A DNA stretch of 52,208 nt, from positions 1 to 52,208 of the forward strand of contig JAUMAF010000120.1 of assembly GCA_032117045.1 (NCBI GenBank), read 5' to 3'. Position 1 is the first letter of the stretch. Every line of letters starts with the position of its first letter. Shown here piece after piece: positions 1,616 to 42,484 of this stretch. Below the pieces are notes generated by a model. It did no database searches, had not been told where the DNA came from, and saw only the letters and a list, made by a program, of their open reading frames with translations. Both the position numbers and the translations under genes were made by a program. This DNA is from Pirellulales bacterium. GTDB taxonomy: Bacteria; Planctomycetota; Planctomycetia; Pirellulales; UBA1268.

Positions 1616-1689
1616 TGGGCGGCGAGGGACTCGAACCCCCAACCCCCTCGGTGTAAACGAGGTGCTCTGACCAATTGAGCTAGCCGCCC
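1616..1689 (-). tRNA. tRNA-Val (anticodon UAC)
   Basis: The reverse complement folds by hand into a 74-nt cloverleaf. Acceptor GGGCGGC/GCCGCCC, D arm GCUC/GAGC, anticodon arm CCUCG-UUUACAC-CGAGG, 5-nt variable loop, T arm GGGGG-UUCGAGU-CCCUC, discriminator A. CCA is not encoded. Confidence 0.9.
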
Positions 1690-1849: not shown

Positions 1850-1952
1850 AGGCGCACCCGGCCCGAGCCCGGACCCAAGCACGGCAGCCCGCGGCCTCAC
1901 GGCCGGTCGGCATTCAGGGGTCGGCACTCAGCGCGGAACTGCCCACGCCCCG
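1850..1952 (-). repeat. Degenerate, inverted member of the REP/composite element family, arranged right-arm IR, REP hairpin, left-arm remnant
   Basis: 1887..1911 is the exact reverse complement of the REP core GCCGACCGGCCGTGAGGCCGCGGGC. 1925..1952 matches the reverse complement of IR-right plus the TCGCTGA linker of the composite elements. It lies between tRNA-Val and the aspS stop. Confidence 0.5.
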
Positions 1953-1974
1953 AGCCAACCGAAGGCGTCGCGCG

Positions 1975-14666: not shown

Positions 14667-15092
14667 ATGGCCGGTATCCCCAAGGATGTCTGGTACGCGG
14701 GCGGCTTGCGGTTCGAGTGCACGCAGTGCGGCGACTGCTGCTCCGGGGCCGAGGGCTATGTCTGGGTGAACCAGGCGGAGATCGACGCCATGGCGGCCCG
14801 CACGAGCATGACCCCGGCCGACTTCGAGGCGGCGTTCGTGAAGCGGGTGGGCGTGCGACGGTCGCTCAAGGAGCGTTCCAACGGCGACTGCGTGCTCCTC
14901 GACGTGACGACGCGGAAGTGCACCGCCTACGAGGACCGACCGCGGCAGTGCCGCACCTGGCCCTTCTGGGATTCAAATCTCTCGAGCCCGGCGGCCTGGG
15001 CCGAGGCGGCTGAGGCCTGCCCCGGCTGCGACAAGGGGAATCTCGTGCCCCTCGAACGCATCGTCGAGCAGGCCTCGAAGATCCGAATCTGA
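14667..15092 (+). CDS. YkgJ-family (CxxCxxCC) cysteine-cluster protein
   Basis: CTQCGDCCSG plus CTAYEDRPRQCRTWPFW. GGAGGA lies 8 nt upstream of the ATG at 14667. Confidence 0.75.
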   Translation: MAGIPKDVWYAGGLRFECTQCGDCCSGAEGYVWVNQAEIDAMAARTSMTPADFEAAFVKRVGVRRSLKERSNGDCVLLDVTTRKCTAYEDRPRQCRTWPFWDSNLSSPAAWAEAAEACPGCDKGNLVPLERIVEQASKIRI

Positions 15093-15112
15093 CGGGGCCC
15101 CCCTCTGCGGCG

Positions 15113-15165
15113 TTCGTGCCCGTGCAAGCCGACCGGCCGTGAGGCCGCGGGCCATTGCGGATCAC
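15113..15165 (+). repeat. REP-like intergenic palindromic element, the best-preserved solo copy
   Basis: TTCGTGCCCGTGCAAGCCGACCGGCCGTGAGGCCGCGGGCCATTGCGGATCAC. Core hairpin CGGCC-GTGA-GGCCG flanked by GCCCG/CGGGC. Nearly identical to 19010..19062. It sits between convergent genes. Confidence 0.65.
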
Positions 15166-17298: not shown

Positions 17299-18349
17299 CA
17301 CGCCTCCTCGACCGACGCGGGCCCTCTCCGGCATCCAGCCCACGGGCCGCTTCCATTGGGGCAACTATTTCGGCGCCATCCGCCAATACATCGACCTCCA
17401 GCCGGCGATGCCGGGGAGCCTCGGCCAGGGGGCGGCAGACGAGGCCTACTACTTCATCGCCGATTTGCATGCGCTGACGACGGTCCGCGACCCGGAGCGG
17501 CTGCGGTCGCTCGTGCATGCCGCGGCCCTCGACCTGGTGGCGCTGGGGCTCGATCCCGAGCGGGCCGTGCTCTACGTGCAGTCGGACGTGCCGGAGGTGA
17601 CGGAGCTCACCTGGCTGCTGATGACCGTCACCCCGATGGGGCTGCTGGAACGGTGCCATGCCTACAAAGACAAAAAGACCCGCGGGCTGCCGGCCGATGC
17701 GGGCCTGTTCACCTATCCGGTGCTGATGGCCGCCGACATCCTCGCCTACGACGCCACCGTGGTGCCGGTGGGGGAAGATCAGGTCCAGCACATCGAGGTC
17801 TGCCGCGACCTGGCCGGCGCCTTCAACCATCTCTATGGCGACGTCTTCACGCTGCCGAAGGCACGGCTCGTCGAGGGGGGCGCCAAGGTGCCCGGCACCG
17901 ATGGGCAGAAGATGAGCAAGAGCTACGAGAACACGATCGAGGTCTTCGAGGGGCCCTCTCTTCAGAAAAAGAAGATCATGCGGATCACGACCGATTCCCG
18001 CCCCATGGAGCAGCCCAAGGATCCGGAGGGCGACCACCTTTTCGAACTCTTCACGCTCTTCGCACCCGAAGCCGACCGGCTGACGATGGCCGAACTCTAC
18101 CGCCGCGGTGGCTTCGGCTACGGCGAAGTCAAGAAGGCGCTCGCCGAGGCGGCGACGGCCTTCTTTGCCGATGCGCGGGCGCGGCGTGCCGCGCTCGAAG
18201 CCGACCCCGGCCGCATCGATGCGATTCTGGCGGCCGGCGCCGCCCGGGCCCGGGCCAAGGCGGGCGAGGTGCTCGCCCGGGCGAAGCGGGCCTGCGGACT
18301 CGCCCGCGGTCCGATGATCGCCACCGCGCCGGCGGGGAGGCGATCGTGA
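17288..18349 (+). CDS. trpS: Tryptophanyl-tRNA synthetase
   Basis: [18 protein letters not shown] (HIGH-like region), KMSKS present. Overlaps the pyrD end by 11 nt. Confidence 0.95.
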
Positions 18350-18765
18350 ACGTCCTCGGGATCGGCACCGACATCACGGAGTGTCTGCGGATCGCGCAGA
18401 TGATCGAGCGGCACGGCGAACTCTTCGTCGGCCGCGTCTACACGCCTGCCGAGATCGAGTATTGCCGGGCCCGAAAGATGGCCACGCAGCACTTCGCAGG
18501 CCGCTGGGCGGCGAAGGAAGCGGTGCTCAAGGCCTTGGGCACGGGCTGGCGGCGGGGCATCAGTTGGCGCGACGTCGAGATTCTGAACGGCGCCGGAGGC
18601 CGGCCCCAGGCGTTTCTCAAGGGGGGCACCCAGGAAATCGCCGAGAAGATGGGGATCAACGGCATCCTCGTGAGCATCTCCCACTGCCGATCGCATGCCA
18701 CCGCCTTCGCCGTGGCGCTCGACGAGATGCCAGGGACGTTCGCCACCGACATGCCGTGGCTGTGA
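18346..18765 (+). CDS. acpS: Holo-ACP synthase
   Basis: [10 protein letters not shown]..., [19 protein letters not shown] start in a GTGA overlap with the trpS stop. Confidence 0.9.
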
Positions 18766-18779
18766 CGAATGGCGGCTCG

Positions 18780-19062
18780 TGCCCGTGACAGCCGGCCGTG
18801 AGGCCGCGGGCTGCCCTGGTGCGCGGCTCGGGGCTGCCCGTGCCCCGTCGCCGGACGTTCGGGGGGCTTGGGGCTGCCCGTGCCCCGGAGCCGGACGTTC
18901 GTTTCGCCCATCCTGGGCTTCACTCACTCGGATGCCGCCGGCGCTTCGGCATCCTGCCTCCGCTTGGCGTCATACGCCGGCTCCGGGGCACGGGCAGCCC
19001 CTCGCTGAGTTCATGCCCGTGAAAGCCGACTGGCCGTGAGGCCGCCGGCCATTGCGGCTCAT
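18780..19062 (+). repeat. Composite palindromic intergenic element, copy A: REP, duplicated left IR arm, about 118-nt conserved core, right IR arm, REP
   Basis: REP 18780..18811. IR-left GGGGCTGCCCGTGCCCCG at 18830..18847 and 18870..18887. Perfect complement CGGGGCACGGGCAGCCCC at 18984..19001. Inner hairpins at 18930..18954 and 18966..18978. REP 19010..19062. 18891..19008 matches 39087..39204 with about 4 mismatches by eye. Confidence 0.75.
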
Positions 19063-19099: not shown

Positions 19100-21883
19100 T
19101 CAGCCTTCAAACTTCTGCAACTCGGCGATGCCACCGGGGAGCGTGAGCTGCGCGAGAGGAGTGCCTTCCGGAACGGGCGTCACTCCGTCGCGGCGAGTGA
19201 GAGCGAGCCGCGTCTGGTTGCCGAGCAGGGCGTCGAGTTGCGACTTCAACTCCTTCTGCTTCGGCTCTGCGAGTTTGCCGAAGGCCTCGCGGCCCCGGCA
19301 CTTCGGGAAGGCACGGCAGCCGAGCCAGGGCCCACGCTTGCCGTCGCGGAGATTCATGAGATCGCCGCACTTCGGGCAGGCGATGTCGGTGACCAGCGGC
19401 GGCGGTGACGGAAACTTCAGGTTTCCCTTGCGATCGAGGTTGAGGATGAACGGCGGCGGCTCGGCGGCCGCGGCCTCCTTCGCCTTCTTGCCCTTCGGCT
19501 TCACCGGCCGAGGCTTGTCCTCGACCAGGAAATCGCCGAACCGTCCGGTCCGCTTCACCATCGGCACGCCGGCTGGCGAGAGCAGGTCGATCTGCTCCGG
19601 CAGCAGCGGCCGCCGCTGGCGGTCGACCGGCATCGCATAGGTGCAGGCCGGCACCTCTTTCGGCTTCACGACCCGCTTCGACTTCTTGCCCTTGGCGGTC
19701 AGGGCCGGCTCCGGCGGCTCCACGACGACCTTCTCGTTGTAGCCGCTGCAGGAGAGAAACTCCCCCTTGCCGCCGAGCCGGTAATCGAGCCGGCGGCCGC
19801 ACTCCGGGCAGGCATAGGGTGAGGGATCCGACTTCGCCTTTTCGTGCGGCTCGTCCATCGCGGTGTCGAGCTTCGGGGCGAGTTCGTCGTGGAACTCGTG
19901 GAGCATGTCGGTCCACTTCTTGGTGCCCTGCGCCACCTGGTCGAGTTCCCGCTCGATCTCCCGCGTGTAGCCGATCTCGATGAACTGGTTCTCGAAGCCC
20001 CGCTTGAGGAAGCCGGTCACCGCCTCGCCGATGGCCGTGGCGTGAAACCGTCGGTCCTGCTGGACGACGTAGCCGCGGTTCTCGATCACGTTGATGATGC
20101 TGGCGTAGGTGGAGGGGCGACCGATGCCCTCCTCCTCCATCTTTTTGACGAGCGTGGCCTCGGTGTAGCGAGGCGGAGGCGCCTGGAACTTCTGCCGCGG
20201 CTCGATGTCAAAGGGAGCGAGCTGCGTGCCCTTGTCGAAATCGGGGAGCACCTGGTCGCCGTCGTCCTTGGGCGTGCCGCTGATGCGATAGAAGCCGTCG
20301 AAGCGAAGCACCCGGCCGTTGGTCTTGAAGACGGCGCCGGTGTCGCGGTCGCTCCGGCGCATGCGAACGCTCGTTGAATCCCACTCGGCATCGGTCGACT
20401 GGGAGGCCACGAAGCACTGCCAGATCAGTCGGTAGAGCTTGAGCTGCTCGTCACTGAGGGCGGAGGCGATGAGGTCGGGCTCGCGGGCCGCGTCGGTCGG
20501 CCGGATGGCTTCGTGGGCCTCCTGAGCGCTCTCGTTGGAACTCGAATACGACCGCGGCTTCTCGGGAACATACGCGTCGCCATGCCGCTTCTGCAGGTAG
20601 CCGCGGGCCATCTCGATCGCCTCGCGGGAGAGGTTTGTCGAGTCGGTTCGCATGTAGGTGATCAGGCCCACCCGGCCCTCGTCGGGCAGGTCGATGCCCT
20701 CGTAGAGCTGCTGGGCGATCCGCATGGTGCGGTCGGTCGACATGCCGAGCCGGCTGCTCGCGGCCTGCTGAAGCGTGCTGGTGATGAACGGGGGATAGGG
20801 CCTGGAACGCGTCCGGGTCACATCAATCGATTCGACCGTGTACCGCGTCTTCGGGTCAGGCCGGCCCGTGATGCGGACGGTGTTTTGACCGCGGCCCTTG
20901 GCCGATGCGTCGAGCTCCCGCACGACCGCGATGTCGATCAGGCCTGCGGCCTCGGCGGCGGTGCGAACGGCAGCCGAGAGATCGGCGGTCGACGTGTTTT
21001 CCGCCTCGACCTTGAATGGCTTGCCCCCGACCTCGACCAGATCGCAGGCGAGCGATCGGTGATCGGCGAGCCAGGCCATCCGCTCCCGCACCAGCGGCGG
21101 CCGGCCGCGTTCGTCGCGACGGGCCATGAACGCACTCCATTCCGCATGCAGCGCCGCGGAGGCATCGACGTCGAATGTCATCGACGACGTGATCTCCCAC
21201 GACTCCGCCGGAGTGAAGGCGCGGATCTCCAGTTCCCTGTCGACCACGATCCGGGTCGCCACACTCTGCACGCGGCCGGCGCTCAGCCCGCCCGCCACCT
21301 TTTTCCAGAGGATGGGCGAGACCTGATAGCCCACGATCCGGTCGACGATCCGCCGGGCCTGCTGGGCCTCGACGCGGGGCATGTTGATCGCCCGCGGCGA
21401 CTGGAATGCCTTCAGGATCTCCGACTTCGTGATCGCGTCGAACGTCACCCGTTTGGCCCGCAGGGGATCGACGTCGAGCACCTGGGTGAGATGCCAGGCG
21501 ATGGCCTCGCCTTCCCGATCCAAGTCGGTGGCGAACCAGATCTCGCTGGCGGCCTTGGCGAGCTTCCGCAGTTCCGCGACCTTCTTCTTCTTGTCGTCGT
21601 CGATTTCGTAGGTCGGAGCGAAGTCGTGGTCGAGATCGACACCCGGCACCGGCTGTTTTTCTCCCTTGGGTGACTTGCTGGGGAGATCACGGATGTGGCC
21701 GATCGAGGCCTCCACCACGAAGCCTGGGCCCAGATATTTCCCGATGGTCTTCGATTTGGCGGGGCTTTCGACGATCACCAGTTGGTAATCGCCCTTCGCG
21801 GCGGAGGTGGCTCGTGGGCTCTCCGACCGCGTGGAACCGCCGCCCCGCCTGGGAGCCGCTCGCTTCGACGTCTTCTTTGCCAT
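19100..21883 (-). CDS. topA: DNA topoisomerase I with C-terminal Zn-ribbon repeats
   Basis: Toprim start LVIVESPAKSKTIGKYLG, catalytic region ITYMRTDS, several CPxCG/CxxC fingers at the C-terminus. Start taken at MAKKTSKR (21883). Confidence 0.95.
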   Translation of the reverse strand: MAKKTSKRAAPRRGGGSTRSESPRATSAAKGDYQLVIVESPAKSKTIGKYLGPGFVVEASIGHIRDLPSKSPKGEKQPVPGVDLDHDFAPTYEIDDDKKKKVAELRKLAKAASEIWFATDLDREGEAIAWHLTQVLDVDPLRAKRVTFDAITKSEILKAFQSPRAINMPRVEAQQARRIVDRIVGYQVSPILWKKVAGGLSAGRVQSVATRIVVDRELEIRAFTPAESWEITSSMTFDVDASAALHAEWSAFMARRDERGRPPLVRERMAWLADHRSLACDLVEVGGKPFKVEAENTSTADLSAAVRTAAEAAGLIDIAVVRELDASAKGRGQNTVRITGRPDPKTRYTVESIDVTRTRSRPYPPFITSTLQQAASSRLGMSTDRTMRIAQQLYEGIDLPDEGRVGLITYMRTDSTNLSREAIEMARGYLQKRHGDAYVPEKPRSYSSSNESAQEAHEAIRPTDAAREPDLIASALSDEQLKLYRLIWQCFVASQSTDAEWDSTSVRMRRSDRDTGAVFKTNGRVLRFDGFYRISGTPKDDGDQVLPDFDKGTQLAPFDIEPRQKFQAPPPRYTEATLVKKMEEEGIGRPSTYASIINVIENRGYVVQQDRRFHATAIGEAVTGFLKRGFENQFIEIGYTREIERELDQVAQGTKKWTDMLHEFHDELAPKLDTAMDEPHEKAKSDPSPYACPECGRRLDYRLGGKGEFLSCSGYNEKVVVEPPEPALTAKGKKSKRVVKPKEVPACTYAMPVDRQRRPLLPEQIDLLSPAGVPMVKRTGRFGDFLVEDKPRPVKPKGKKAKEAAAAEPPPFILNLDRKGNLKFPSPPPLVTDIACPKCGDLMNLRDGKRGPWLGCRAFPKCRGREAFGKLAEPKQKELKSQLDALLGNQTRLALTRRDGVTPVPEGTPLAQLTLPGGIAELQKFEG

Positions 21884-22117
21884 GGTTCGCGGAGTCTGGG
21901 GCGTTGGTGGGGAGGGTCTGAGGGGGACGCGTGGCTGCTGAACGTGAATCACGGATGGGGCGTGGCAGGGACATCGGGATTGGCGCCGACCGGCCCTGCG
22001 CTACAATCTTCGACCTGCCCCGGCCGGAACCGCGGCACGTCAGCGTTACCCTCCGCGATCTTTCCTTGTCAAGTCTCGGCGGTTTCGCCGTCGGGCCAAC
22101 AGCCTACAGGCGGTGCC

Positions 22118-29075: not shown

Positions 29076-29122
29076 CCGCGAAAGGCCGAATCTCGGGGCT
29101 GGGGTGGGTTTCCGGGGCGGTG

Positions 29123-29204
29123 TTCGTGCCCGACCGGCCGTAAGACCGCGGGCTGCCCTGCGTTTGGTTCTGGGCCACCGACCGGCCGCGGGAGACTCCG
29201 GGCC
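29123..29204 (+). repeat. Degenerate REP-family copies
   Basis: TTCGTGCCCGACCGGCCGTAAGACCGCGGGCTGCCCTG resembles REP plus the post-REP linker of copy A, with a 10-nt deletion and a GTAA loop. A second GACCGGCCGCGGG remnant lies at about 29180..29192. Confidence 0.4.
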
Positions 29205-38638: not shown

Positions 38639-38983
38639 ATGATGTCGAATACGCACATGAGGCAGCGAGATAACCAACGAGACGACGTTCCTTCCGCTGA
38701 AGTCCGGACTCATCAGGTCTATTTCCATCAGGGATGCCCCGTCTGCGGTCGGCGGCTGGAAATCAACGTCAGCCTGCTGGGCAAACGGGTGTTTTGCCAG
38801 CATTGTGGCGGCGGCTTCGTGGCCATGGATGCGTCGATGCAGTCGGCGCCCGCCGATCCACGGCAGACTGGTCGAACTGGAAAAGTGGATGAACTCCTGG
38901 AGCGGGCGGCCTTTCTCCTCGAGCAGGCGGGGTCGGAATCCGGATCGCGTCACGAAGCGACCACGCCGACCGCTACCCGTTAG
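38639..38983 (+). CDS. Small zinc-ribbon protein
   Basis: CPVCGRRL...CQHCGG ribbon. GGGGAGG lies 8 nt upstream of the ATG at 38639. The ORF-track start at 38576 is a TTG. Confidence 0.55.
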   Translation: MMSNTHMRQRDNQRDDVPSAEVRTHQVYFHQGCPVCGRRLEINVSLLGKRVFCQHCGGGFVAMDASMQSAPADPRQTGRTGKVDELLERAAFLLEQAGSESGSRHEATTPTATR

Positions 38984-39001: not shown

Positions 39002-39250
39002 GGCTCGGGGCTGTCCGTGCAAGCCGACGGGCCGTGAGGCCGCGGGCAGGACTGGTGCGCGGCTCGTGGCTGCCCATGCCTCGTCGCCGGACGTTCGTTG
39101 CCCCCATCCTGGGCTTCACTCACTCGGATGCCGCCGGCGCTTCGGCATCCTGCCTGCGCTTGGCGTCATACGCCGGCTTCGGGGCACGGGCAGCCCCTCG
39201 CTGACGTCAGGCCGTGCAAGCCGATCGGCCGTGAGGCCACGGGCTGCTGG
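39002..39250 (+). repeat. Composite palindromic intergenic element, copy B: REP, left IR arm (degenerate), conserved core, right IR arm, REP
   Basis: REP 39014..39047, IR-left GTGGCTGCCCATGCCTCG 39066..39083, core 39087..39179, IR-right CGGGGCACGGGCAGCCCC 39180..39197, REP 39210..39244. Same strand orientation as copy A. Confidence 0.75.
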
Positions 39251-39254
39251 CCCG

Positions 39255-39306
39255 CTGGTTTCTGGCTAGCCGGTTTTTGGCCAGCCGGTTTTTGGCCAGC
39301 CCGGTT
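39255..39306. repeat. 15-bp tandem repeat (CCGGTTTTTGGCCAG), about 3.4 copies, overlapping the aroA 3' end
   Basis: Units at 39255..39269 (degenerate, contains the aroA stop), 39270..39284 and 39285..39299 (identical), and a partial fourth. They translate on the minus strand as GWPKTGWPKTG-stop. Confidence 0.85.
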
Positions 39307-40603
39307 CGAACTGCGCGAGACTGCCCAGCCGGCTCCAGTAGCCTGGAAATGTCTTGCCGACGCAGCCAGGATCTTGAATTGCGACCCCAGGCACCACAAG
39401 TCCAGCGAGCGCGAGGCTCATCGCCATGCGATGGTCGTCGTAGGTTCGCAGGCTCGCAGCTGCGAGCGGTGCCGGGGAGATCGTCAGGCCGTCGGCATGT
39501 TCCGTCGCGTCGGCCTGCAGGGTGCGGAGTTCGCGGACGAGGTCACCGATCCGATCGGTCTCCTTGTCACGAATGTGGGCGACGTTACGGATCGTGGTCG
39601 GCGTGTCGGCGAAGAGGGCCACGACGGCCAGCGTCGGCACCGTGTCGCTGATTGCGTTCATATCGATGTCGATGCCGCGGGATGCACGGCCGGTGACGGT
39701 GACGGAATTGCCGGCGCCGGAGGCATCGCCCTCGTCCCAGTGCACGGTGCATCCCATCCGCTCGAGGGCATCGCAGAATGCCACGTCGCCCTGCATGCTG
39801 CGCCGAGACAGACCCTCGACCGTGACCGATCCGCCGGTGATGGCGGCCGCCGCGAAGAAGTAGCTCGCGGCTGAGGCATCCGGCTCGATGTCATACTCGC
39901 GTCCCTCGTAGCCGCCTGCCGGGATGTGCCAGGTGCGATCTCCCACGACGTCGCACCGACCGCCGAAGCTTGCCATCACCCGGCGGGTCATCTCCAGATA
40001 AGGCAGCGAGACGAGGGTGCCGATGAACTCGAGCGTCATGCCCTGCTCGGTGCAGGGGGCTGCGAGCGCCAGTCCGCTGGCGAACTGGCTCGAGGTGCTG
40101 CCGCGGATCGACGCGGTGCCGCCGGCGAGTCCGTGCGAGCGGATCGTCACGGGCGGGCATCCGCCTGGACTGCCGGCCTCCGCGTCGATGCCGAGCTCAC
40201 GGAGCGCGGCCAGGAGATCACCGATCGGCCGCTGCCGCATACGGGCGGTGCCGTCGAGATGATACGTGCCACGGCCGAGCCCGCAGACGGCGGCGAGAAA
40301 CCGCATCGTGGTGCCGCTGGCGGCACAGTCGAGTGTCGCCTCCGCCGCCGGGATCACGCCACCGACACCCTCCACAGTCACGGTAGCGGCTTCCCAATCG
40401 GCCTGGAGTGGCACCCCGAGGGCCGCGAGGGCGGCCGCCATGATCCGCGTATCCTGGCTGTCGAGCATGCCGGTCAGCCGACTCGTGCCGCGGGCCAGCG
40501 CCGCGCAGACGAAGGCGCGGTTGCTGATGCTCTTCGAACCCGGAGGACGGATGCGGCCCGTGACCGGCGCCGGGCAGGCGGGGATGACGAGATGGTCAGC
40601 CAT
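39266..40603 (-). CDS. aroA: 3-phosphoshikimate 1-carboxyvinyltransferase (EPSP synthase)
   Basis: PGSKSISNRAFVCAALA, LDSQDT, DHRMAMS. Confidence 0.95.
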   Translation of the reverse strand: MADHLVIPACPAPVTGRIRPPGSKSISNRAFVCAALARGTSRLTGMLDSQDTRIMAAALAALGVPLQADWEAATVTVEGVGGVIPAAEATLDCAASGTTMRFLAAVCGLGRGTYHLDGTARMRQRPIGDLLAALRELGIDAEAGSPGGCPPVTIRSHGLAGGTASIRGSTSSQFASGLALAAPCTEQGMTLEFIGTLVSLPYLEMTRRVMASFGGRCDVVGDRTWHIPAGGYEGREYDIEPDASAASYFFAAAAITGGSVTVEGLSRRSMQGDVAFCDALERMGCTVHWDEGDASGAGNSVTVTGRASRGIDIDMNAISDTVPTLAVVALFADTPTTIRNVAHIRDKETDRIGDLVRELRTLQADATEHADGLTISPAPLAAASLRTYDDHRMAMSLALAGLVVPGVAIQDPGCVGKTFPGYWSRLGSLAQFEPGWPKTGWPKTG

Positions 40604-42022: not shown

Positions 42023-42484
42023 TCAGTCGTCGACGCTGGCCAGAATCGGATCGTCGAGCAGAGGAAGGATCGATGCGGTGGCGGGCTCGCCGGCGAGGGC
42101 GGTCTCCCATTCGTCACAAACGGCTGGCAGGCTTGGCTTCTCGTCGAGAAGCAGCTGCACACCGAGAAGGATGTGGTTGGCGGCGCGGCCGTCGGCGTCG
42201 AACCACTGCCGGAGGATGGCTCGTTCGAAGGCCTTCGGCATGCTCGCCCGCGGACCGCGGTGGATCCGACCGGCCTCCTTGTAGGCATATGTCTCAGGAC
42301 CGATTTCGACGACCGAGATCATGCGGTCGACCTCGCCCCTCTGCGGGGCCGGGGCGGAGGCACACGTGCCGGCGGCGATGACGGTGGGATCTGTCTCACC
42401 GGGGGACACGCCGAGCACGGCATGGGCCGAGACGAGATCGACCGCCGGAATTCCGAGCCACTCACGGCAGGGGTCGAAGGACAT
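42023..42484 (-). CDS. Hypothetical protein with a planctomycete-type WLGIP N-terminal motif
   Basis: DPCREWLGIPA...VLGVSPGETDPTVIAAG resembles the J-like WLGI N-termini common in Planctomycetota. The rest is unrecognised. Confidence 0.45.
   Translation of the reverse strand: MSFDPCREWLGIPAVDLVSAHAVLGVSPGETDPTVIAAGTCASAPAPQRGEVDRMISVVEIGPETYAYKEAGRIHRGPRASMPKAFERAILRQWFDADGRAANHILLGVQLLLDEKPSLPAVCDEWETALAGEPATASILPLLDDPILASVDD

Follow-up and report, generated by a model that had tools for sequence, protein, structure and literature searches.

What kind of element fills two gaps between convergent genes in contig JAUMAF010000120.1 (52,208 nt; hereafter the window) of a Pirellulales bacterium (assembly GCA_032117045.1)? 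Near-identical palindromic composites lie at 18780-19062 and 39002-39250, in the same orientation, where a first, sequence-only reading of this DNA had placed them. It saw in them either a mobile element resembling a miniature inverted-repeat transposable element (MITE), with 18-nt terminal inverted repeats (TIRs), or a structured RNA or terminator module. The composites are indeed repeated, structured and uncatalogued, but they are not a MITE defined by TIRs and target-site duplications (TSDs), and fold and strand differ from those proposed. Their centre is a ~150-nt non-coding repeat of a previously uncatalogued family, with dozens of copies across freshwater planctomycete (Pirellulales) genomes. 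Concerning its spread, we give about an even chance to a mobile, non-autonomous repeat that is selected for its single-strand fold and propagated via a single-stranded intermediate.

A three-way junction on the minus strand

The two window copies were defined with a covariance model:

18862..19011, minus strand: copy A, ~150-nt structured repeat (model R1, 138.6 bits, E = 4e-30)
39058..39207, minus strand: copy B, ~150-nt structured repeat (model R1, 131 bits)

The covariance-model E-values of copies A and B are of the order of 1e-28 to 1e-30, and chance is excluded as the source of the matches; searching the 52-kb window with the same model returned no full copy beyond these two. The 118-nt cores (18891-19008 and 39087-39204), estimated by eye to differ at about four positions, differ at exactly four (18904, 18906, 18960 and 18983), and the model-defined 150-nt units at 14. 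The arms had been described as perfect complements. This holds for copy A, with a 25-nt inverted repeat free of mismatches (18870-18894/18977-19001), but not for copy B, whose left arm GTGGCTGCCCATGCCTCG has three mismatches to the right arm. Copy B also shows broken pairs at several P1 positions (non-standard pairs in the model alignment) and is decaying. A related locus (L046, flanks 92% identical) holds its orthologue, in which a P2 tip pair is flipped on both sides relative to copy B, among other changes.

The fold consists of a closing stem (P1) and two hairpins (P2 and P3), placed in copy A as follows:

18975..19005, minus strand: P1 5' strand, pairing with 18867-18897; tandem G.A sites GCGAGGGG and CGGAGCCGG
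18974, minus strand: unpaired U between P1 and P2; U in 98 of the 98 copies covering the column
18932..18973, minus strand: P2 hairpin (AUGACGCC...GGCGGCAU), tip GGCA-GGA-UGCC, GGA loop at 18952-18954
18927..18931, minus strand: junction strand CCGAG between P2 and P3, 93-100% conserved
18898..18926, minus strand: P3 hairpin, tip GCCC-AGGAU-GGGC, GGA at 18911-18913
18867..18897, minus strand: P1 3' strand (CGUCCGGCUCCGGGGCACGGGCAGCCCCAAGC), one bulged U

P1 comprises ~27 pairs, a single bulged U and tandem G.A/A.G at two sites, and its columns covary across 106 copies. P2 is a long irregular hairpin with the family tip GSCA-(U)GGA-UGSC and a fold common to 45 distinct interiors; its tip pair is C-G in 61 copies and G-C in 36, and its base pairs as G-C, U-A or C-G. 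The conservation of CCGAG also holds in copies that were not picked by the 20-mer used for searching (see below). P3 abuts P1 without a linker and reads, from base to tip, U-A, tandem G.A/A.G, G-C, U-R, a 3x3 loop and GCCC-AGGAU-GGGC. Its base pair occurs as U-A (91), C-G (5) and U.G (3), the next varying pair as U-A (45), U.G (40) and C-G (20), and the tip pair as C-G (88) and G-C (13), while in one locus (L083) Watson-Crick pairs replace the internal loop entirely. The loops themselves vary little: P2 has (U)GGA in ~90 of the 106 copies, and P3 has AGGAU in 89 and UGGAG in seven. GGA is 95-100% conserved in both loops, over stems that flip from G-C to C-G.

Paired cells make up 93.8% of the model alignment, compared with 86.7% for shuffles and 33-40% for slid controls. 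Changes on both sides of a pair affect 29 of the 49 pairs, in every helix (0 of 500 shuffles), a count that overstates the independent events, the alignment being fitted to the model. The tandem GA/GA is exchanged for UC/GA or GA/UC and never for UC/UC. The outer ~20-bp arms differ among subfamilies yet remain complementary (GGGGCTGCCCGTGCCCCG, GGGGTTACCCCGTACCGTC and TTCGGGCTCCCCATATCCCG, each matched by a partner of its own), whereas the interior is 90-100% conserved across copies, and at least three arm sequences share one core inside a single metagenome-assembled genome (MAG). That one core goes with different sets of arms, and with tip pairs that are flipped, is a qualitative result and does not hinge on the inflated counts.

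Consensus folding of the whole alignment with RNAalifold gave -54.7 for the minus strand vs -26.0 for the plus strand, and the model scored copy A at 138.6 vs 36.7 bits and copy B at 131 vs 28.4 bits (minus vs plus). In 80 of 81 copies the minus strand folded more stably (mean -86.5 vs -74.0 kcal/mol), and G.U cells outnumber A.C cells (212 vs 53). The conserved feature is the minus-strand three-way-junction fold with its fixed linker bases. The strand and internal fold implied by the sequence-only reading were therefore largely wrong: of its internal hairpins, only GCCCA-TCC-TGGGC is kept across copies, whereas GGATGCCG/CGGCATCC and GGCGT/ACGCC are folds of a single sequence, replaced under covariation by a hairpin with the tip GGCA-TCC-TGCC. 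Its view that the element is non-coding stands; a short open reading frame (ORF) was considered and dropped, as the arms covary and the frames differ.

Other candidate features were tried and dropped as well: a K-turn at the base of P3 (covariation pairs position 89 with 117), a pseudoknot between loop and junction, GGAU with AUCC (consistent covariation is lacking) and an integron attC site (R' and R'' boxes are absent).

A family of inserted repeats with lineage-specific modules

The core 20-mer GGGCTTCACTCACTCGGATG was found in at least 80 contigs from at least eight MAGs, in data holding one genome per species. Among the matches listed, all come from Planctomycetia/Pirellulales MAGs except two, labelled Kuenenia and Actinomyces. 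These two loci (L001, from a MAG labelled Candidatus Kuenenia stuttgartiensis, and L045) carry typical main-type elements within Pirellulales-like flanks, and are probably binning contaminants in their MAGs. Numerous 20-mer matches sit at contig ends. The aroA protein of the window was likewise met only on a 2.2-kb Logan contig, whose break falls within the repeat. A profile search of 0.54 Mb of fetched loci, sampled at about 8 kb each, gave 128 matches, and since 43 of them lack the exact 20-mer, the conservation is not merely a product of ascertainment. The covariance model recognised 106 copies in the same 0.54 Mb, many of them from the same few genomes.

The family was absent from the catalogues searched. 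Against Rfam 15 the window gave only a tRNA at the gathering threshold, and two subfamilies searched at E-values up to 10 gave only chance-level matches to miRNA, snoRNA and sRNA families. Viral contigs, plasmids and phages held no match to the repeat. A literature search on REP (repetitive extragenic palindromic) sequences, MITEs, hammerheads and non-coding RNAs of Planctomycetes found only a general REP survey; REPs as such are documented in this phylum (PMC3733652).

Variation within the family includes a divergent subfamily with the junction GCAGA and a long perfect P3. Members of it form head-to-head doublets with a main-type element 10-130 nt away, reminiscent of the REP doublets known as REPINs:

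L001 257-588, L006 1810-2118, L031 5814-6090, L048 7004-7311, L051 2037-2463, L079 121-427: head-to-head doublets

Additionally, a nested hairpin of ~35 nt, CGGGCACCGATCCGCC-GNAG-GCGGATTGGTCG, was seen within P2 or the P3 tip in four loci (L022 742-918, L030 4681-4857, L053 4302-4466 and L005 4739-4916).

Evidence for mobility came from the topA/acpS gap, which was read in other genomes through relatives of the window's topA:

L082: topA 95%, gap 19 nt, no repeat
L085: topA 87%, gap 67 nt, no repeat
L086: topA 83%, genes overlap, no gap
L084: topA 88%, gap 197 nt, only other REP-like repeats
L083: topA 88%, gap 348 nt, element in the window orientation (103 bits)
L087: topA 83%, gap 326 nt, element in the opposite orientation (89 bits), 15 nt past the topA stop

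The check for empty sites thus returned orthologous gaps of both kinds, empty and filled, and supports the conclusion that the repeat behaves as an insertion. At a second site, the gene ending at 15092 is followed in the window by no more than a REP and an arm remnant, whereas a full element follows its orthologue in a more distant MAG (L008, 73.5% identity). In a further topA relative (L088, 5519-5899), an IS3-type HTH_Tnp_1 ORF replaces acpS after topA and synteny is broken.

The window copies share their orientation, each in a convergent gap. The features around them are:

Within the frame 17356..18765, stop at 18763-18765: acpS (PF01648)
18781..18811: copy A, REP hairpin towards acpS, GCCCG...GGCC-GTGA-GGCC...CGGGC
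18830..18861, minus strand: extra 3'-terminal module CGAACGUCCGGCGACGGGGCACGGGCAGCCCC, in tandem with copy A at 40-nt spacing
19015..19049: copy A, REP hairpin towards topA, oriented like the acpS-side REP
19100..21952, minus strand: topA (PF01131, Toprim, Zn_ribbon_Top1)
Ending at 38983: gene for a small CPVC...CQHC protein, bordering the copy B gap
39013..39047: copy B, REP hairpin towards the Zn-ribbon gene
39210..39244: copy B, REP hairpin towards aroA
39266..40603, minus strand: aroA (PF00275), bordering the copy B gap

The acpS-topA gap measures 334 nt. Copy A (19011->18862) runs in the sense of topA, ~90 nt 3' of its stop, and copy B in the sense of aroA, ~60 nt 3' of its stop. The TCGCTGA linker and the REP hairpins already described for these composites were found on both sides, and the two REPs around each copy are in direct orientation. 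The REP motif GGCCGTGAGGCC occurs six times exactly in the window, and ten times with at most one mismatch, against 1.25 expected by chance. Its hairpins fit the 20-40-nt imperfect palindrome, whereas the 150-nt branched core does not. The layout REP-linker-core-linker-REP is shared by the window and many JBPCTA copies, while other MAGs have different modules: the REP types differ by lineage (one is GTAG-tagged), and other lineages have the core without REPs or with a single one. The REP hairpins are separate, lineage-specific modules, and the whole is a mosaic like the bacterial interspersed mosaic elements (BIMEs).

Solo REPs of the same type were located at 1879-1956 (minus strand, near 1893), 15093-15164 (plus strand, near 15135) and 29100-29161 (plus strand, near 29134). 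Two of the solo REPs follow apparent arm remnants, such as GGCTCGGGGCGTGGGCAGTTCCGCGCTGAG at 1956->1927 and CGGGGCCCCCCTCTGCGGCGTTCG at 15093-15116, an arrangement that would be expected if a hairpin interior were deleted between short GGGGC repeats. In the lineage of the window, the arm TGCCCGTGCCCCGTCGCCGGACG (18870-18887) resembles the first REP half TGCCCGTGCAAGCCGACCGGCCG (REP 19013-19035), and this likeness hints at sequence exchange between arms and REPs. In copy A the left-arm module is duplicated in tandem (40 nt, 18830-18861). Partial copies, seen at many loci, are mostly this 3'-terminal ~40-nt module, often in tandem beside a full copy and also solo. The tandem form (CGAACGUCCGGC plus arm) was observed at window 18830-18861 and in L043, L056, L058, L060, L062, L064 and L074, with up to three additional modules in L043. 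Slippage, a subfamily moving with an extra unit, and 5'-truncated copies are candidates for its origin.

Apart from the repeat, a short tandem repeat GGCCAGCCGGTTTTT of ~2.5 units (39262-39305) overlaps the final aroA codons. Near 42.3 kb (42329-42370, against L046 3256-4083) ~790 bp of a minus-strand coding region are missing from the window; this difference was considered as a repeat and rejected, being an unrelated in-gene coding indel. The sole Rfam match within the window is the tRNA gene at 1616-1689 (minus strand, 68.6 bits).

How the repeat may spread, and what else it could be

The reading to which we give an even chance would work as follows. The element would be copied to new sites through a single-stranded intermediate, either single-stranded DNA (ssDNA) or, less likely, RNA; a trans-acting enzyme would recognise the fold of this intermediate as well as the bases fixed in its junction and loops, and spreading would continue only in lineages retaining the fold. 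A fold needed for propagation would explain why the arms covary, why the core is fixed and why single copies such as copy B decay. The REP hairpins, as independent modules, would accumulate in the same gaps. Since both window copies lie in sense behind topA and aroA, read-through transcripts of these genes would end in a structure of -80 to -100 kcal/mol, a possible 3'-end barrier.

Several points weigh against this reading. The sampled loci yielded neither a mobilising enzyme nor an autonomous parent, and they showed no target motif or exact boundary of insertion. The covariation counts are inflated by shared descent, with many copies from few genomes, and the gene calls at the loci were made by a GC3 heuristic (G+C content at third codon positions). 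In the window each copy runs in the sense of the gene upstream of it, and the invariant U, the CCGAG strand and the two GGA loops are traits expected of a functional RNA, such as a ribozyme or a protein-binding site. Finally, sequence cannot separate ssDNA from RNA, because both tolerate G.T or G.U pairs and tandem G.A.

The strongest rival, in our view possible but doubtful, is an RNA of use to the host in 3' untranslated regions (UTRs), in which the three-way junction would stabilise or terminate transcripts and the two CA(N)GGAUG loops would recruit or titrate a CsrA-like protein. It would account for a GGA that is kept in both loops while the stems beneath it flip, for the position of both window copies in sense behind topA and aroA, and for a very stable closing stem (-99 to -100 kcal/mol). 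The consensus obtained for CsrA by SELEX (systematic evolution of ligands by exponential enrichment) is RUACARGGAUGU, which the loops CAGGAUG and CA(A/G)GGAUG match. A CsrA homologue (MLVLTRK...RLGFEA...IHRREV) is encoded in a closely related MAG (L026, 1883..2170), although a single csrA gene in the ~0.5 Mb sampled is not significant and no CsrA was found in the 52-kb window. This homologue lies on the minus strand, has 95 aa with a Gly/Asn/Asp-rich tail, and adjoins three paralogous genes (MKSQGEIEAAVCD...), ~500 nt from an element.

The genomic context of the family does not favour such a role. The gene at the 3' side of the structured strand is convergent in 53 of 69 cases, usually within ~50 nt, but the upstream gene is co-directional with that strand in no more than 32 of 56. 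Where genes were called on both sides (40 copies), the arrangements are:

Co-directional genes, element antisense: 17
Convergent genes: 14
Co-directional genes, element in sense: 7
Divergent genes: 2

Between co-directional genes the antisense copies therefore exceed those in sense, which runs counter to a 3' UTR module. Consensus scans found no upstream motif or sigma-70-like promoter at the element, and no U-tract terminator follows the stem on either strand. The head-to-head doublets, together with this lack of a conserved upstream motif, disfavour copies as RNA genes of their own, and the two members of a doublet cannot both be transcribed in sense. Relatives carry the element in opposite orientations within the same topA/acpS gap, and the relative with 95% topA has that gap empty. 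Weak and mixed agreement with transcription direction, both orientations at one gap, inverted doublets and the decay of single copies disfavour the view of each copy as a maintained RNA gene, and are in keeping with a fold required for propagation. Further points against the host-RNA reading are the small number of GGA sites, two per unit, and the lack of a promoter.

An ordinary MITE, in which a cut-and-paste transposase would read TIRs of 18-25 nt and the interior would be a passenger, is disfavoured and, we believe, very unlikely. The element is small, non-coding and multi-copy, with presence/absence polymorphism, and the arms of copy A do form a perfect 25-nt inverted repeat, all of which suits a MITE. 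However, no TSD was detected around 81 full-length copies (all offsets, k = 3-8), the only recurrent matches falling inside the element ends. At least three arm sequences accompany the same core in one MAG, so that it is the arms that vary and covary and the interior that is conserved, and the similarity between copies extends past the arms into linkers and REPs. The strand asymmetry is unexpected of a double-stranded TIR site. No transposase-bearing parent with the same ends occurs in the ~0.6 Mb around the 106 copies, nor does any neighbour gene recur there beyond common paralogues (histidine kinases, SRP54/FtsY, DUF1559), none of them a transposase. Local GC skew was not associated with element orientation (39 positive, 49 negative, p = 0.34), a comparison confounded by gene orientation.

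It is highly improbable that the mobile repeat carries a self-cleaving ribozyme, a variant of the hammerhead type that would cut behind the invariant U separating P1 from P2. The topology is that of type III, with P1 as stem III, P2 as stem I and P3 as stem II; the linkers measure 1, 8 and 3 nt, where those of the hammerhead measure 1, 7 and 3 nt. Position 17 (U), 3 (C), 5 (G) and 6 (A) agree, the tandem G8.A13 and A9.G12 stands beside G10.1-C11.1, and the G12-A13-A14 trio is present: GA/GA adjoins a G-C pair in 104 of 105 copies, with the third position (A14) being A in 91% and G in some. The core, however, reads C-C-G-A-G-U-G-A against C3-U4-G5-A6-N7-G8-A9 in the hammerhead. U4C, an insertion after A6 and exchanges at 15.1-16.1 are each known singly from natural hammerheads of low activity (PMC3088659), but here three deviations come together, with C4 in 100% of the copies, an extra G after A6 and C-G at 15.1-16.1 (96%). 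Where A14 is replaced by G, the change covaries with position 7. No Rfam hammerhead model matched either of the two subfamilies at E-values up to 10, the junction of the divergent subfamily differs (GCAGA), and the Y-GA-R tandem motif also occurs twice in P1, as a building block and not as a ribozyme signature. The element is not to be classed among the hammerheads. Were the junction a new class of self-cleaving RNA related to the hammerhead, borne by a non-autonomous mobile element of bacteria in over 100 copies per genome, it would be a bacterial counterpart of the eukaryotic retrozymes, a prospect to which we attach very little probability.

Relation to known repeats and RNAs

Dispersed intergenic repeats such as REP, BIME, ERIC and MITE sequences are mainly known from Proteobacteria and are usually simple hairpins. 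The family described here adds a branched fold, backed by covariation, in which the bases of junction and loops are fixed. It abounds in an uncultured clade of freshwater planctomycetes and is missing from Rfam. As many copies lie at contig ends, the repeat breaks short-read assemblies, and it marks recent insertions between close relatives. It also offers testable ideas, namely a mobilisation system recognising single strands, a hammerhead-like variant and genome-wide CsrA-type sites in 3' UTRs, and even its plainest reading yields a seed alignment for a new RNA or repeat family.

Among the structured RNAs, the type III hammerhead shares with the element the three-way junction, nearly equal linkers, tandem G.A by a G-C pair, a GAA that precedes the closing stem and, at the would-be cleavage site, a non-G base left unpaired (here U), but it has U4 and A-U at 15.1-16.1 where the element has C4, C-G and one extra base after A6. 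CsrB and RsmZ likewise present GGA in short hairpin loops closed by CA...UG, but with 7-22 sites on a discrete small RNA gene, whereas the element has two per unit and is dispersed in both orientations.

Concerning mobile elements, the palindrome-associated transposable elements (PATEs) of the IS200/IS605 group resemble the repeat in lacking target duplication, in their like-oriented end hairpins (REP-core-REP) and in a strand-specific single-strand fold. However, they have hairpins at both ends, while in other lineages the core stands without REPs or with one, and tnpA and tnpB were not found near the element copies in the sampled loci. REPINs consist of inverted REPs, in contrast to the direct REPs around the window copies.

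ERIC sequences, or intergenic repeat units (IRUs), are enterobacterial imperfect palindromes of ~127 bp, intergenic, non-coding, present in many copies and conserved across genera. Variants with extra sequence at internal sites occur, and the long foldback may sometimes be active at the RNA level. To our knowledge, no transposase or target duplication has been described for ERIC. The element is like ERIC in all these respects, although ERIC is described as a single long hairpin, of unrelated sequence and phylum, while the element branches at a three-way junction, its junction and loop bases being fixed and its arms covarying. REP and BIME sequences, which are associated with RAYT transposases, are, like the element, mosaics of repeat modules in gaps at the 3' ends of genes, with a unit that is a 20-40-nt hairpin where the core of the element is branched and 150 nt long. 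The family is thus a new variant among the known bacterial interspersed intergenic repeats, and in its behaviour it is closest to ERIC and BIME.

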